DNA from: an uncultured Bacteroidales bacterium
GTDB lineage: Bacteria > Bacteroidota > Bacteroidia > Bacteroidales > VadinHA17
DNA: 64,000 nt
Reading direction: 5' to 3'
Assembly: GCA_963778605.1 (NCBI GenBank)
Contig: CAVZVF010000001.1
Location: 788,097 to 852,096 of the forward strand
Every line of letters starts with the position of its first letter. Position 1 is the stretch's first letter. Position numbers and translations under genes: made by a program. The notes below the pieces were generated by a model, which was given only the letters and a program-made list of their open reading frames with translations, ran no database searches and was not told the origin of the DNA. This document shows positions 47,440 through 63,701 of this stretch, piece by piece.

Positions 47440-48361
47440 TGTTTCCCGCCTTTCTTAAAATGTTATTAAAGTTTTCAAAAAAAATCTTTTTCTTCTGAGT
47501 ATCATTTAATTTTGAAGCGAGAATTGTACCAACGCTCTGGTAATATGAACTATCTGATCCATAAAACAACCGGTCCTCACCAAGGTATTTAAGAGCAAAA
47601 TCAATCATATTACCTTCGTTATTACTGCCTGAAGTATCCACATAAACATTGGTATAATCTTTTAATGCCTTACATGCATATTCCCAATCGCCTCCACCTC
47701 CTGTATGCGCATACTGGAAAATGGCTTCCGGATATCTTGTTGCTGCTTCCACGAAATCTTCAGGCACAGACGCATTAGGCTGTGTATTGCCATATTTTGT
47801 GCGTTTTCCTCCGACTCCGATTCCGCAGTGGGCATGCATCAGTATTATCATCTTAAGATCAATGAACTTCTCGATAATAGGATAGAATAGAGGGTCGTTT
47901 ATTTTTACCTGGTTATAGACCTTTAATCCAATCATTCCCTTATCAATGCACCTGTTGATTTCTTCAAGTGATTCCTTACCGTATACAGGATTCACAAAAC
48001 AGCTTCCGAGATACCTGTCAGGATACTTCTTCATAGCTTCAAGGACGCTATCGTTGCAGCTCCTGAATTCTTCCGGGGTGGCCAATGATTTACCACCTGC
48101 CGATATAGGTTTGGAAATCTCCAGCTTCTCAATGCCTAATCTGTCAGCAAAATCTAATTGTGATTCGAGGGTACCGACGAGGCCGACATGCTCATGAGCA
48201 TTTATTTTCCTGTACTTCATGACCTCCTTCATTATATCATAATGTGCAGTTGTCATGTTAGCACCCGTAGCTGATTCAGCAATTTTGCTGCCCAGTATCA
48301 AACCCGCTGCTGAAAGAGCAGTATAACTGAAAAATTTTCTGCGGTTTAAAGTTTTTGACAT
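47429..48361 (-). CDS. Tat-exported amidohydrolase (Amidohydro_2)
   Basis: NRRKFF Tat motif; INAHEH, IGLK, LMH, AHTGGG, VDTSGS and YGSD motifs. Confidence 0.85.
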   Translation of the reverse strand: MSKTLNRRKFFSYTALSAAGLILGSKIAESATGANMTTAHYDIMKEVMKYRKINAHEHVGLVGTLESQLDFADRLGIEKLEISKPISAGGKSLATPEEFRSCNDSVLEAMKKYPDRYLGSCFVNPVYGKESLEEINRCIDKGMIGLKVYNQVKINDPLFYPIIEKFIDLKMIILMHAHCGIGVGGKRTKYGNTQPNASVPEDFVEAATRYPEAIFQYAHTGGGGDWEYACKALKDYTNVYVDTSGSNNEGNMIDFALKYLGEDRLFYGSDSSYYQSVGTILASKLNDTQKKKIFFENFNNILRKAGNNVN

Positions 48362-48528
48362 TAAATTACTTTTTACTTGTATTTTTATTAATCACGTTTT
48401 ATACTGAATCCGAAATATATATTTCATTTTTTCAGCAGGTACCTGTCACCTTATTGTTGAGCCAACTGGGCATACCACACCTGTACATTTTCATTTACGT
48501 TATCATCGGTAAATATAATCTTAATCTA

Positions 48529-48673
48529 ATTCTGCTTTGACAGATTAGAAAAATCAACCTGCGTTTGCCCTTAATCCCTAAAGGGAACAGGTTGATTTTT
48601 CAGTTTGCTTCCTTTAGGGTTGGGGCAAACAAACTGAAAAATCGTTGTAAGTTGTAATCTGTCAAAGTAGATC
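48529..48673. mobile_element. 145-bp MITE-like element with interleaved stems (copy 1)
   Basis: TIR tctgctttgacagatta / taatctgtcaaagtaga (16/17), flanked by TA on both sides; near-identical copy at 62082..62225. Confidence 0.85.
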
Positions 48674-48718
48674 TAAATTGTACAAATTTACTAACCTTAT
48701 ATATATGAACCTGAAATT

Positions 48719-59705: not shown

Positions 59706-61222
59706 TTAGTTGATAATTTTCATTTGGAAGAGACCTTTGAAATATTTTTTCAAAATATATTCCGGTTGCAGCTTATCCGGGATTTGCTTTAGTTTTTTAT
59801 AGTCGTATTCAAGCGGCAAAATTGTTTTCGGGTTCATTGTCGCTGTATCATTGGTTAATGTGTACCATTCTTTCAGCAACACCATCATTTCATCTACCAT
59901 GGTTTTATTTTCGGGAAGGGCTGCAAGGTTATTAATTTCCAACGGATCGTGTTTCAGATTGAACAACTGTGTATAATTCCGTTGCGGATACCTGATTAAT
60001 TTCCATTCATCGGTGCGGACGGCCCTGGCAGTATTACGATAAACCGTATAAAGTGAACTGCGAACTTCTTTTTCCTTTCCCCTGACGACAGAAACAAAGT
60101 CCTTACCATCAATACCATCAGGTGCAGGCAAACTGCACAGGTCCGCCAGGGTTGGAAAGATGTCGTACAGGTAAACCAGTGCATCTCTTACTTCATTTTT
60201 CGGAATGCCCGGCCCGCTGATTATCAGGGGCACTTTTGTACTATGTTCATAAAGGTCCTGCTTGCCTAATAATCCGTGGCTTCCGATTGCCAGTCCATTG
60301 TCGGCAGCGTAAACAATGATTGTATTATCAAATAAGCCTTCCTTTTTTAAGGTTTCAATAATATCGCCTATCCTTTTGTCAAGATGACTGATCAGGGCAT
60401 AGTAATCGGATAGTGATTCCTGTATTATTTCCGGAGTTCGTGGCCAGGGCGCAAGTGTTTCGTCCCTGATGTTTAAATCATCGAATTCAAAAGGGTGCAG
60501 AGCTTTAAAATTTCCCGGCAACGGAATTGATCCATCGGGATACATTCCGATGTAATCTTTACGTGGTGAACGCGGATCATGAGGGGCAGTAAAAGCCACG
60601 TAACAAAAAAATGGCTTTTTCACGCGCCCCTTTTGCATAACTGTTCAGATAGCCTATGGCTGCATCGGTAAACAGATCGGTGGAAAACCCTTTTTTTACC
60701 GGGCTGCTTAGTTTACGATCGGGCCCCAGGCTTTGGCATGGGACCTGATAATGATCGGCCATACCCCCAAGGAATACATTTTCACCTTTCTGAAAAGAAG
60801 CCTCAAAAGTTTTTGCGCTATTGTGCCATTTCCCGGTTCCGAAAGTTTCATAACCATTTTCGGCAAAATGCATCGGCATTGTATGAACTCCATCAAGATG
60901 ATCATAAACATGGAAAAGGCTTTTCCCGCGTTAACAGCATGGCCCGGCTGGGGGCACATATGGCCCCATGATGTCCTCCCATGACATAATTGTTGGTGAA
61001 CCGGACACCATTTTCAGCCAACTTATCGATATTTGGTGTTCTGATGTAGGTATTTCCTGCACATCCCATGGCATCGGCCCGTTGGTCGTCAGCAAAAAGG
61101 AAAAGTACGTTCGGTTTGGACCGGTTTTCTTTCTTTTCTGCCGCAGTTCCCTTACCGGTATTGCAGCTCACAAACGTTCCGAATAACATAAGTGCAGATA
61201 CCGGAAATAATACGTTTTTCAT
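59706..61222 (-). CDS. S1 sulfatase (lipoprotein), Cys-type, frameshifted
   Basis: Lipobox FVSC; ADDQR, CAPSRAMLLT, GKWH, APHDPR and ADNGLAIGSHGLLGKQ motifs. Confidence 0.88.
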
Positions 61223-61224
61223 TT

Positions 61225-61849
61225 TTAATTCTTTTTCAGGTTTGATATTGTTTCAATATCTTCAGGAAGGAACGAACCAGATGTCAGTACAATAGCCATT
61301 GAATTTTTCAGTTTCCCCATTGTGAAAGTAAGTATCATTGAAATAATCATTGTTCCAATAATCGGGAGCCTGACCAACCCCGCCTCCTTTAAGAACCATC
61401 GATTCGTCAAACCCCCGATCCTGAGTGCGGTACGGATAATTATCTCCCAGGTGCCATTTTCCAAAAATACCTGTGGTATAACCACCTTCTTTAAATGCCT
61501 TTGCAATGGTTGTCCGGTCCGCATCCAGAATTTCCCGTCCATTGATTGTATGCCAAACGCCAACTTTATTACAATAATTACCGGTCATTAATCCGGACCG
61601 ACTTGGGGCACAGGTTGTCCCGACATGAAAATTAGTAAAGCGAACACTCTGCGAATGCAGTTTGTCCATGTTAGGAGTCTTAATCAAAGAATTACCATGA
61701 CATCCCATGTCTCCGTATCCCTGATCATCGGTCAGTATAAAAATAACATTTGGTTTGTCTTGTTTTTTGACAGATTGTCCGTGACATCCAACGGACAAAA
61801 TTATTGGAGCTAAGAACATTCCAATTGATGCAGATTTATTGTATGTCAT
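61225..61849 (-). pseudogene. Truncated arylsulfatase (N-terminal ~190 aa only)
   Basis: TDDQGYGD, CAPSRSGLMTG, GKWHLG and GYCTDIWF, then an abrupt end; no room for the remaining >250 aa before the next gene. Confidence 0.8.
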
Positions 61850-61869
61850 GTGCGTGTTACTATTTTCTG

Positions 61870-62000
61870 AATCATGCTATCATAATAAGGGTTTTTCACC
61901 ATCATTTTTTGTGGTGAACCAGGTGTGCTTCGATCATCCTGGATGTACTTTATCATCAGCTCCATCCTCCTGAACCGGGAGACAATAATAATTCTTCAAT
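61870..62000 (-). pseudogene. Collapsed C-terminal relic of another arylsulfatase
   Basis: Reads LLLSPGSGGWS joined directly to ELMIKYIQDDRSTPGSPQK(N)DG, two motifs recalled as separated in Bacteroidota arylsulfatase C-termini. Confidence 0.6.
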
Positions 62001-62081
62001 ATCAAGACTGGAATAATACCAGGTCATTTATTATTACCTGATTTTTTTCGTCTGTTTAATCAATTATTAATGTAATAATTA

Positions 62082-62225
62082 ATTCTACTTTGACAGATTA
62101 GAAAAATCAACCTGTTTTGCCCTTGATCCCTAAAGGGAACAGGTTGATTTTTCAGTTTGCTCCCTTTAGGGTCGGGGCAAACAAACTGAAAAATCGTTGT
62201 AAGATGTAATATGTCAAAGTAGAAT
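62082..62225. mobile_element. 144-bp MITE-like element with interleaved stems (copy 2)
   Basis: TIR attctactttgaca / tgtcaaagtagaat perfect, TA-flanked; about 9 differences from 48529..48673. Confidence 0.85.
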
Positions 62226-62239
62226 TAATATACTTTACT

Positions 62240-63701
62240 TTAATTGCAATATTTTTTTTTCGTATCAGCAACTGCTTTACCACCTGTAACAGGTTCAGGA
62301 TGATCTTCATGAAGAAGGGCTTTCATTTGTTGTTTACACCGGCATATTTTGAATTCCCGGCAAGATTATGCAATTCCTTCGGGTCAGCTTCTTCATTGTA
62401 TAATTCTTCCCCCATTTTTCCGAAACCCCATTCAGTATATCTCCATACTTCGGTACGAACACTATGACCTGGTGTATTTCCTCTCTGAACCTGGGTAAAA
62501 GCAGGATGATTCCATTCTGCTTCAGGGTTTTTAAGAAGAGGAAGCAAACTATATCCTTGTATATTTGAAGGAGGCGTTAAACCTGTAAGTTCGGCAAGCG
62601 TCGGATAAATGTCGATCAACTCAACTGTTCGCTTACAAATCTTTCCGGCTGATTTATTTCCCGGAAAAGAAATGATTAAAGGACTTTTTGCTGATTCTTC
62701 AAAACAACTTTGCTTAAACCATAAGCCATGTTCTCCAAGATGGTATCCGTGATCGCTCCAAAAAACAATGACAGTATTCTCACTTAATCCCAATGAATCA
62801 AGAGCATCGAGCAACCGTCCGATTTGGGCATCTACAAATGAAATAGCAGCAAAATAAGCCAGTTTGCACTCCCTGGCCTGGTCGGTGGTGATGCCAAAAT
62901 AAGGCCATGGTTTAGTGGATGCTAAAGCCAGCTCAGGGTAATCATCCGGCGTTTCCGAAGATATTTTGGGAAGACTCATCTGGTCCTGGTTATACATGTC
63001 GAAATATTTTTTTGGTGTTATCCATGGGGTATGAGGCTTATAGAACCCGGCAGCGATAAAAAACGGTTTGTTTTTATGCTTCTCCAATAGTTTAATAGCT
63101 TCAGTGGCAACCTTCCCGTCGGTATGTTCCACGTCTTTTCCCTTTCTGTCGGAAAGATAGGCCATTGCTGAACCCAGACCCCTGTTCGGTGTATAATTTA
63201 TGAGGTCAAGTTCAAGGGACGTTTTATCAAGTCCTGATGGATTTATGCGTTCCATCCATGATGCCCTGTCGTCTAACCCATTAGTGCCTATATCACCCGG
63301 GTTTCCATAATGGTACATCTTTCCAACACGGGCAACAAAGTAGCCGTTTTTAATGAACATTTGCGGAAGAGTTACCACATCAGGCATATCCTGCCTGAAA
63401 TGATATTTAAATCAAAAACACGTGTTTTGTCAGGACGCAAGCCTGTTAAAAGGGAGCTGCGACTGGGACTGCTAAGTGGGAACTGGCAATAAGAGTTTGC
63501 AAATGCAACACCTTTCGATGCCAGTCGGTCGATATTTGGAGATTTCACCAATGGATGACCGTAACAACCCAGGTCATTGTTCATGTCATCAACAGCGATG
63601 AAGAGGACGTTCATTTTCTTTCCCTGGGCATGAATTGTACCAGCAGTAACCGTGAGGGCCATGGGAAGAATCATACTGTTCAGAAAGGAATTTTTCATCA
63701 T
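62240..63701 (-). CDS. S1 sulfatase (iduronate-2-sulfatase-like), Ser-type, two frameshifts
   Basis: [32 protein letters not shown] and [11 protein letters not shown] motifs; tail ...KKKYCN*. Confidence 0.9.

Follow-up and report, generated by a model that had tools for sequence, protein, structure and literature searches.

The object at positions 48530-48672 of the window (the whole 64,000-nt stretch of DNA analysed here) is a MITE by every feature that can be tested, and it is tied to the IS701 family of insertion sequences (ISs). In our best explanation, to which we give a probability of about 0.85, a DDE transposase of the IS701 family mobilises the MITE in trans, and the folded core is kept for the element's own propagation. 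A sequence-only reading had described a 145-bp element at 48529-48673 with TA-flanked TIRs. The element and its TIRs (17 bp) hold; the exact extent is 143 bp, and the flank is not TA but a 4-bp duplication, CTAA. We set the borders where the genome copies cease aligning, and in the alignment of copies with their flanks these borders read TTCTRCTTTGACAGATT ... AATMTGTCAAAGTAGAW. A second copy, which had been put at 62082, is likewise real and starts at 62083 (Table 1). The same reading held that the object was more than a simple MITE or terminator: it does have conserved, covarying stems beyond bare TIRs, and it is nonetheless a MITE.

Table 1. Features of the two MITE copies in the window
Feature	Position	Strand	Remark
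Left TSD copy, CTAA	48526-48529	.	repeated at 48673-48676
MITE copy 1, 'G-type' subfamily	48530-48672	+ (orientation arbitrary)	borders from genome copy alignment
Left TIR TTCTGCTTTGACAGATT, 17 bp	48530-48546	+	A-type form TTCTACTTTGACAGATT = ends of ~1.5-kb IS701-family ISs
A = 8-mer X1 (GAAAAATC, 48548-48555) + n1 (AACCTG)	48548-48561	+	14/14 pairs with A'
B, loop of A/A' hairpin	48564-48586	+	complementary to B'
A' = n1' (CAGGTT) + shared 8-mer X' (GATTTTTC, 48594-48601)	48588-48601	+	
C = shared X' + n2 (AGTTTG), 6 nt	48594-48607	+	14/14 pairs with C'
B', loop of C/C' hairpin	48609-48629	+	complementary to B
C' = n2' (CAAACT) + X2 (GAAAAATC, 48636-48643)	48630-48643	+	
Right TIR, 17 bp	48656-48672	+	from genome copies and the 53-element alignment
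Right TSD copy, CTAA	48673-48676	.	same as left copy
MITE copy 2, 142 bp, 'A-type' subfamily	62083-62224	+	TTAA flanks at 62079-62082 and 62225-62228

By BLAST the MITE occupies 42 places on 12 contigs of its own genome; 40 of these copies have both ends and two are degenerate. The length is 143 nt in 36-37 of the 40, and 38 lie between perfect 4-bp TSDs, variable first and last bases included. Most of the perfect TSDs (31/38) read YTAR (TTAA 18, CTAA 7, TTAG 6); the others are ATAA (2) and TAAA, CTAT, ATAG, TTAT and GTAA (1 each). The sister genome G538 holds an empty site for the 62083 copy: both flanks meet there at a single TTAA. No ORF of 50 aa or more was found inside 48530-48672, which a 61-aa frame at 48355-48540 enters by 11 nt at the left end. 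The 40 copies form two subfamilies, 11 G-type and 29 A-type, with a mean identity of 98.6% within a subfamily and 94.9% between them, and 12 of the 26 A-type copies of 143 nt have identical sequence. This high identity, together with the 12 identical copies, indicates recent amplification. Two diverged copies in the same genome (G000:C16:188364-188515, L147, and C6:621232-621387, L148) suggest that older insertions exist alongside the recent burst; in one (76% identity) 11 nt are inserted behind the left TIR, and in the other (87% identity) the left TIR is damaged. Across the genus, the MITE family was found in 32 of 212 genomes at 68-97% identity (at most four candidates were scored per genome). 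An initial sampling of 16 other families gave a single one with a match, to the TIR only, and a distant-mode search of plasmid and phage collections returned no match.

The search for an IS with a matching TIR, which the sequence-only reading had proposed, succeeded: IS701-family ISs with identical 17-bp TIRs occur in the same genus. A 25-mer scan led to a metagenome contig (L149) on which a partial ORF comes directly after the exact TIR. The 192-aa partial protein that it encodes reaches 155.8 bits with NF033540 (IS701 family transposase; cut-off 150), and homologues of this transposase are present in 10 of the 212 genus genomes. Four elements of 1495-1500 bp (L153-L156) have both 17-bp TIRs exact, a further one of 1528 bp (L152) has exact TIRs and mismatched flanks, CTAA/TTAG, and two more (L151, L161) show 1-2 TIR mismatches; matching TTAA or TTAT duplications border six of these seven delimited ISs. 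The table in De Palmenaer, Siguier & Mahillon (2008, PMC2266710) gives IS701-family members as 1400-1550 bp long, with ends ---YACT-Y--YR and 4-bp repeats, and the MITE end TTCTACTTTGACAG fits the consensus of that table at positions 4-7, 9 and 12-13. The MITE and the ~1.5-kb ISs of its genus are thus alike in their 17-bp TIRs, end consensus and 4-bp duplication, but the MITE is without a transposase and has only its outermost 24-33 nt in common with them; in a comparison of MITE and IS, similarity ceases 22-33 nt in from each end. An A-run just inside both MITE ends, on the same strand, is also present at the IS ends. Because the likeness is only terminal, the ~90-nt core did not arise by internal deletion from the ISs found here and has an origin of its own. 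For IS5 of E. coli, the pertinent section of PMC5009759 gives a 5'-YTAR-3' target and a 4-bp duplication, the same motif and length as for the MITE; however, the parent transposase of the MITE scores as IS701, not IS5, and the ends of the IS5-like (DUF772) elements in its own genome are unrelated.

The MITE's own assembly (86% complete) yielded no intact IS701-family gene, only one weak fragment (23 bits), and the L149 protein gave no match in this genome. Genome-wide TIR searches (13-mer with ≤2 mismatches, 21-mer with ≤5) returned only the MITE copies and a single-copy element of 432 bp at G000:C14:297733-298164 (L146:134-565) whose TIRs read TTCTACTTTAACAGATT / TTCTATTTTGACAGATT. Over ~120 nt on the left it agrees with the IS701-family ISs at their transposase-upstream end, and it is apparently what remains of the parent IS after an internal deletion; a Pfam search with its 104-aa open frame gave no match. 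Counting against our explanation, the MITE is present in only three of the ten transposase-bearing genomes (G023, G520, G525). Other parent candidates of the own genome were ruled out by their ends: 24 DDE_Tnp_1 and 5 DUF772 loci have different ones, an IS1380-family element has the TIR TATTTAACCTGATTAATTCATAAA, and the TIR of a ~1.87-kb IS with a 549-aa frame, TCCCGAGTTTGACAGTT, has only TTTGACAG in common with that of the MITE. This last IS, of the DDE_Tnp_1 type, is found at G000:C9:190026-191899 and C1:119284-121157 with no clear target duplication.

Two further observations concern relatives of these ends. In G036, an uncultured Bacteroidales MAG from another family, L076 and L051 carry the same 24-nt terminus (TIR and A-run) next to an interior that differs from the MITE, both at contig ends. 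This element, not found outside G036 in 401 order-level genomes, the genome contigs or the metagenome contigs, is probably another IS or MITE using the same transposase clade. Separately, the transposase-upstream IS ends of L151, L156, L160, L161 and L162 have a subterminal hairpin ~25-75 nt from the tip, with arms that vary yet stay complementary (GCCTTGAAAAT...ATTTTCAAGGC versus CCCCTGAAAAG...CTTTTCAGGGG) and a conserved CATCGAAAAACAA after it; the hairpin, which precedes the transposase gene, may have a regulatory role. The idea that the MITE core pairs in antisense with the mRNA of the transposase was considered and rejected: the repeated weak matches, which lie on the strand opposite the codons that specify a conserved motif of the transposase, are chance agreement of purine-rich sequence.

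In the mechanism that we propose, an IS701-family DDE transposase would recognise the 17-bp TIRs and move the MITE in trans, inserting it at YTAR by way of a 4-bp staggered cut. Hairpin complementarity would be kept by selection on intrastrand folding, which would be equal on either strand. The constraint would act on propagation, that is, on whether so short an element is competent to transpose, and the fold might, for instance, bring or hold its ends together. A different sort of mobility had been suggested from the sequence, with the element as a folded ssDNA substrate for a nuclease or transposase acting in trans. Two subterminal hairpins, conserved in shape and variable in sequence, would suit an HUH-type enzyme (IS200/IS605 TnpA or a REP-associated RAYT). 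However, this identity conflicts with the 17-bp TIRs, identical to those of a DDE IS701-family IS, and with a genuine 4-bp duplication, in which the variable bases are the same on either side, and the own-genome copies show no bias of contig strand (22 + versus 18 -). HUH elements (IS200/IS605 PATE, REP/RAYT) are not known to have TIRs or a target duplication; since the MITE has both, the HUH-type identity is in practice refuted.

The core itself was described correctly from the sequence in its main lines. Both A/A' and C/C' are perfect, with 14/14 Watson-Crick pairs each, and B is complementary to B' over 8 + 11 pairs, two of them G-T, which flank a 4x2 internal loop. The shared 8-mer GATTTTTC belongs to both A' and C, so that A/A' and C/C' compete for 48594-48601, and B/B' crosses both. 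Read in the opposite sense, as GAAAAATC, this 8-mer opens A and closes C', which gives a core of ~90 nt in the order X-n1-B-n1'-X'-n2-B'-n2'-X. As read from this layout, the predicted helices A/A', B/B' and C/C' cannot all form fully at once, since A' and C overlap by 8 nt and B/B' crosses both hairpins with linkers of 1-2 nt. The RNA minimum free energy is -65.5 kcal/mol, compared with -29.2 +/- 3.7 for dinucleotide shuffles (z -9.9), and the minus strand also folds far below its dinucleotide shuffles (z -7.4). Constrained RNA folds put the extended B/B' form lowest (-62.2 vs -57.8 and -57.2), folds with DNA parameters put the A/A' hairpin form lowest (-37.4 vs -31.3 to -33.3), and the predicted conformers lie within ~4-6 kcal/mol of one another, the absolute energies of these constrained folds being unreliable because mismatched TIR pairs were forced. 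The RNAalifold consensus on related elements is the two-hairpin form.

To follow these segments across species we fetched 79 related loci. Both ends are present in 55; in the other 24 the element is cut short or rearranged, or it lies at the end of a contig. The alignment excludes L106, which has a 16-nt insertion, and three elements whose length falls outside 138-156 nt; it holds 53 distinct rows from 25 genomes, the two window copies included, with ~10 rows one base out of register in C'. Among the variant loci, L110 (G497:C7) has a ~32-nt GC-rich hairpin inserted within B'; L116 and L117 (G475) keep the left half and have an early degenerate right end without C'; and several others (L123, L124, L129 and L109) are left halves only. 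When the TIRs, A/A', B/B' and the unique part of C/C' are taken together, the 53 elements have 91.5% of cells paired (TIRs 90.6%). The covariation score for this helix set is 0.145, versus 0.076 in shuffled alignments (0/500 as high; the rows are related by descent, and such shuffle counts overstate significance) and 0.029-0.045 with slid partners. Pairs with two-sided change number five in the TIRs, six (of 14) in A/A', five in B/B' and five in the unique part of C. For full C/C' the score is 0.245 vs 0.109 shuffled (0/500 as high), a value that includes the ~10 rows one base off register. B/B' behaves differently: 90.5% of its cells are paired, but its score is 0.106 vs 0.085, and its five two-sided pairs are not above shuffles (4.1, with 152/500 as high). 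B/B' is mostly conserved sequence with weak to moderate covariation, and it may either be base-paired or consist of two inverted copies of one protein-binding site. A/A' and C/C' are strongly covarying across species, and all three segment pairs are conserved and partly exclusive.

The variants behind these scores are easily followed. There are nine of n1 and twelve of n2, and the partners match in nearly all. For n1/n1' the forms include AACCTG/CAGGTT, TACCTG/CAGGTA, AACATG/CATGTT, GTCCTG/CAGGCC and AATCAG/CTGGTT, among others; for n2/n2', AGTTTG/CAAACT, AGCTTG/CAAGCT, AGCTTT/AAAGCT, TCCTTT/AAAGGA, TGCTTT/AAAGCA and TGTTTT/AAAACA. In one subfamily X1, X' and X2 are altered jointly, to GAAAAACC/GGTTTTTC/GAAAAACC. 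The compensatory change that the sequence-only reading saw between the two window copies, A48573/T48621 against G/C, did not survive comparison with the 40 copies, which have G/C in 24, A/C in 13, A/T in one and G/T in one, with one unparsed. The A/T combination is that of window copy 1 alone, and both positions lie in an internal loop of the MFE fold. Real covariation is seen between species only, and at other positions.

Within the genome, the paired core varies as little as the TIRs. Variants per position number 0.15 in the paired core, 0.19 in the TIRs and 0.50 in the linkers (paired vs linker p 0.006), counted from 29 differences from the subfamily consensus in 36-37 copies of 143 nt, with 20 linker positions; some of these variants may have been inherited from a common ancestor. 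For the TIRs, a role is expected in transposition only. The numbers are small, and they suggest that core stems and TIRs pass through the same filter, by which only copies that are still mobile leave descendants. Since the paired core is as invariant as the TIRs and about threefold less variable than the linkers, the constraint most likely bears on the element's own propagation, and selection for host gene regulation is the less likely target. Other sources of constraint are conceivable, namely arm matching without selection or a symmetric RNA effect exerted in either orientation.

The first of these can be stated more fully. The complementarity may never have been selected at all: starting from a palindromic ancestor, template switching or gene conversion would keep the arms matched and leave the stems as a by-product. 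Hairpin-templated correction could have this effect, and covariation in the inverted repeats of mobile elements can arise without base pairing; the TIRs, for which pairing is not needed, show five covarying pairs. In the same direction, B/B' is mostly plain sequence conservation, and the subfamilies were amplified in bursts, so that few independent lineages were sampled. We nevertheless find this account quite unlikely. At least five forms of n1/n1' and at least six of n2/n2' are well matched and have changed independently of each other next to constant loops, and the linkers vary ~3x as much as the paired positions. Furthermore, the order X-n1..n1'-X'-n2..n2'-X differs from that of a simple palindrome: a fold-back sets A against C', which are identical and not complementary, and a single palindromic ancestor is thus insufficient.

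We next consider whether the core acts as RNA. Here the proposal is a strand-specific regulatory RNA in mRNA UTRs, selected by the host as a bistable switch, kissing loop or terminator/antiterminator, much as the sequence-only reading had supposed for 3' UTRs. The very stable RNA fold described above, conformers only ~4-5 kcal/mol apart and the covariation of A/A' and C/C' would agree with it, as would the 11 of 29 cases in which the adjacent gene's 3' end is ≤53 nt away. Gene context, taken from a crude ORF caller (ATG start, ≥100 aa) and not from annotation, does not bear it out. None of the 40 copies is inside an ORF, although only 34% of YTAR sites are intergenic. The copies lie in 25 tandem, 13 divergent and 2 convergent contexts, which does not differ from the 25.7, 9.7 and 4.7 expected from YTAR sites (p 0.26) and shows no enrichment at 3' ends. 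Orientation relative to genes is random, with 13 sense and 12 antisense in the 25 tandem contexts, and sister species differ in insertion sites. Both random orientation and TIRs that are the ends of a known IS family had been named in the sequence-only reading as grounds for giving it up.

The mismatches in the alignment provide an independent view of strandedness. A G-T mismatch is tolerated only in + strand RNA, and an A-C mismatch only in that of the minus strand. G-T/A-C counts are balanced in the TIRs (24/23) and in A/A' (9/10). They are 69/24 in B/B', where a single invariant T-G pair that closes a helix accounts for 45 of the 69, and 5/21 in the unique part of C, a count affected by the register problem in C'. 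This balance, which favours neither strand, and the random orientation argue against a single functional RNA strand. As for known signals, Rfam (E up to 10) gave at best eukaryotic models, of miRNA and snoRNA, that fall far short of their gathering scores, and a scan found no intrinsic terminator or sigma-70 promoter inside the MITE. Inspection by eye of the MITE found neither TAnnTTTG, a Bacteroidetes -7 motif, nor a conserved form of the IHF-like motif WATCAANNNNTTR, 12/13 positions of which fit in one subfamily only. Altogether, no strand-specific RNA role is supported, the core does not look like a gene-regulatory RNA switch, and a host-selected regulatory RNA is very improbable. As a side observation on gene context, several sulfatase-like frames on the minus strand at 59706-63701 of the window are broken up into ORFs that adjoin or overlap (59706-60638 / 60577-60879 / 60902-61222; 61225-61563 / 61262-61849; 62323-63387 / 63372-63701), and MITE copy 2 sits between two of these split genes, which may be frameshifted pseudogenes or assembly errors.

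Our preferred reading, movement in trans by an IS701-family transposase with a core kept for propagation, would allow a more specific and rather doubtful extension. The core might be a three-state nucleic-acid device required in cis by an IS701-type transposase or by the cell. Its hairpins would compete for the shared 8-nt arm, its loops would pair, and the device would serve synapsis, excision or copying, being needed because the element is too short to loop as ordinary duplex DNA. If this were true, the three-state core would constitute a structure-dependent step in DDE transposition. Element lengths fall into two classes, 139-145 nt in 46 of the 53 elements and 151-152 nt, or about one helical turn longer, in the other seven. 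The two classes would fit a helical-phase constraint between the ends, a pattern that rests on one lineage.

Among described elements, the closest functional analogue in print, as far as the cited account goes, appears to be bcr1 of the Bacillus cereus group. In the account given in PMC3184786, bcr1 is a dispersed intergenic element of ~150-155 bp with short direct repeats and a predicted cruciform-like fold in which two independent stem-loops are kept by compensatory changes. Compared by this description, the two are alike in size, intergenic dispersal, direct repeats and two-stem-loop form, but bcr1 belongs to another phylum and has 5-bp repeats, and the hairpins of the MITE, unlike those described for bcr1, share an 8-nt arm and have complementary loops, its parent IS being identified as well. 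This combination of a common arm with complementary loops is what is unusual in the MITE. Correia/NEMIS (Neisseria), Nezha, Chunjie and RUP, as presented in the same source (PMC3184786), are also short, TIR-bounded, non-coding intergenic repeats with stable predicted folds. They differ from the MITE in their TIRs and parent IS family, and the MITE is without a sigma-70 promoter or terminator. More generally, Correia elements are known for a duplicated TA, for an IHF site and for being processed by RNase III. In the literature that our search on MITEs of Bacteroidetes and of IS701 brought up, this MITE family is undescribed, although the supplement of a census preprint (10.1101/2024.01.18.576219) may list it.

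The core probably works to the benefit of the element itself. Since nothing points to a host-selected RNA switch, these findings have little import for gene regulation. What they provide is a clean annotation for ~40 repeats in the own genome and for their relatives, which occur in at least 31 further species within one Bacteroidales genus; the repeats are now linked to their parent IS family. The natural compensatory variants of the MITE core make the role of the fold in the mobility of a short DDE element testable.
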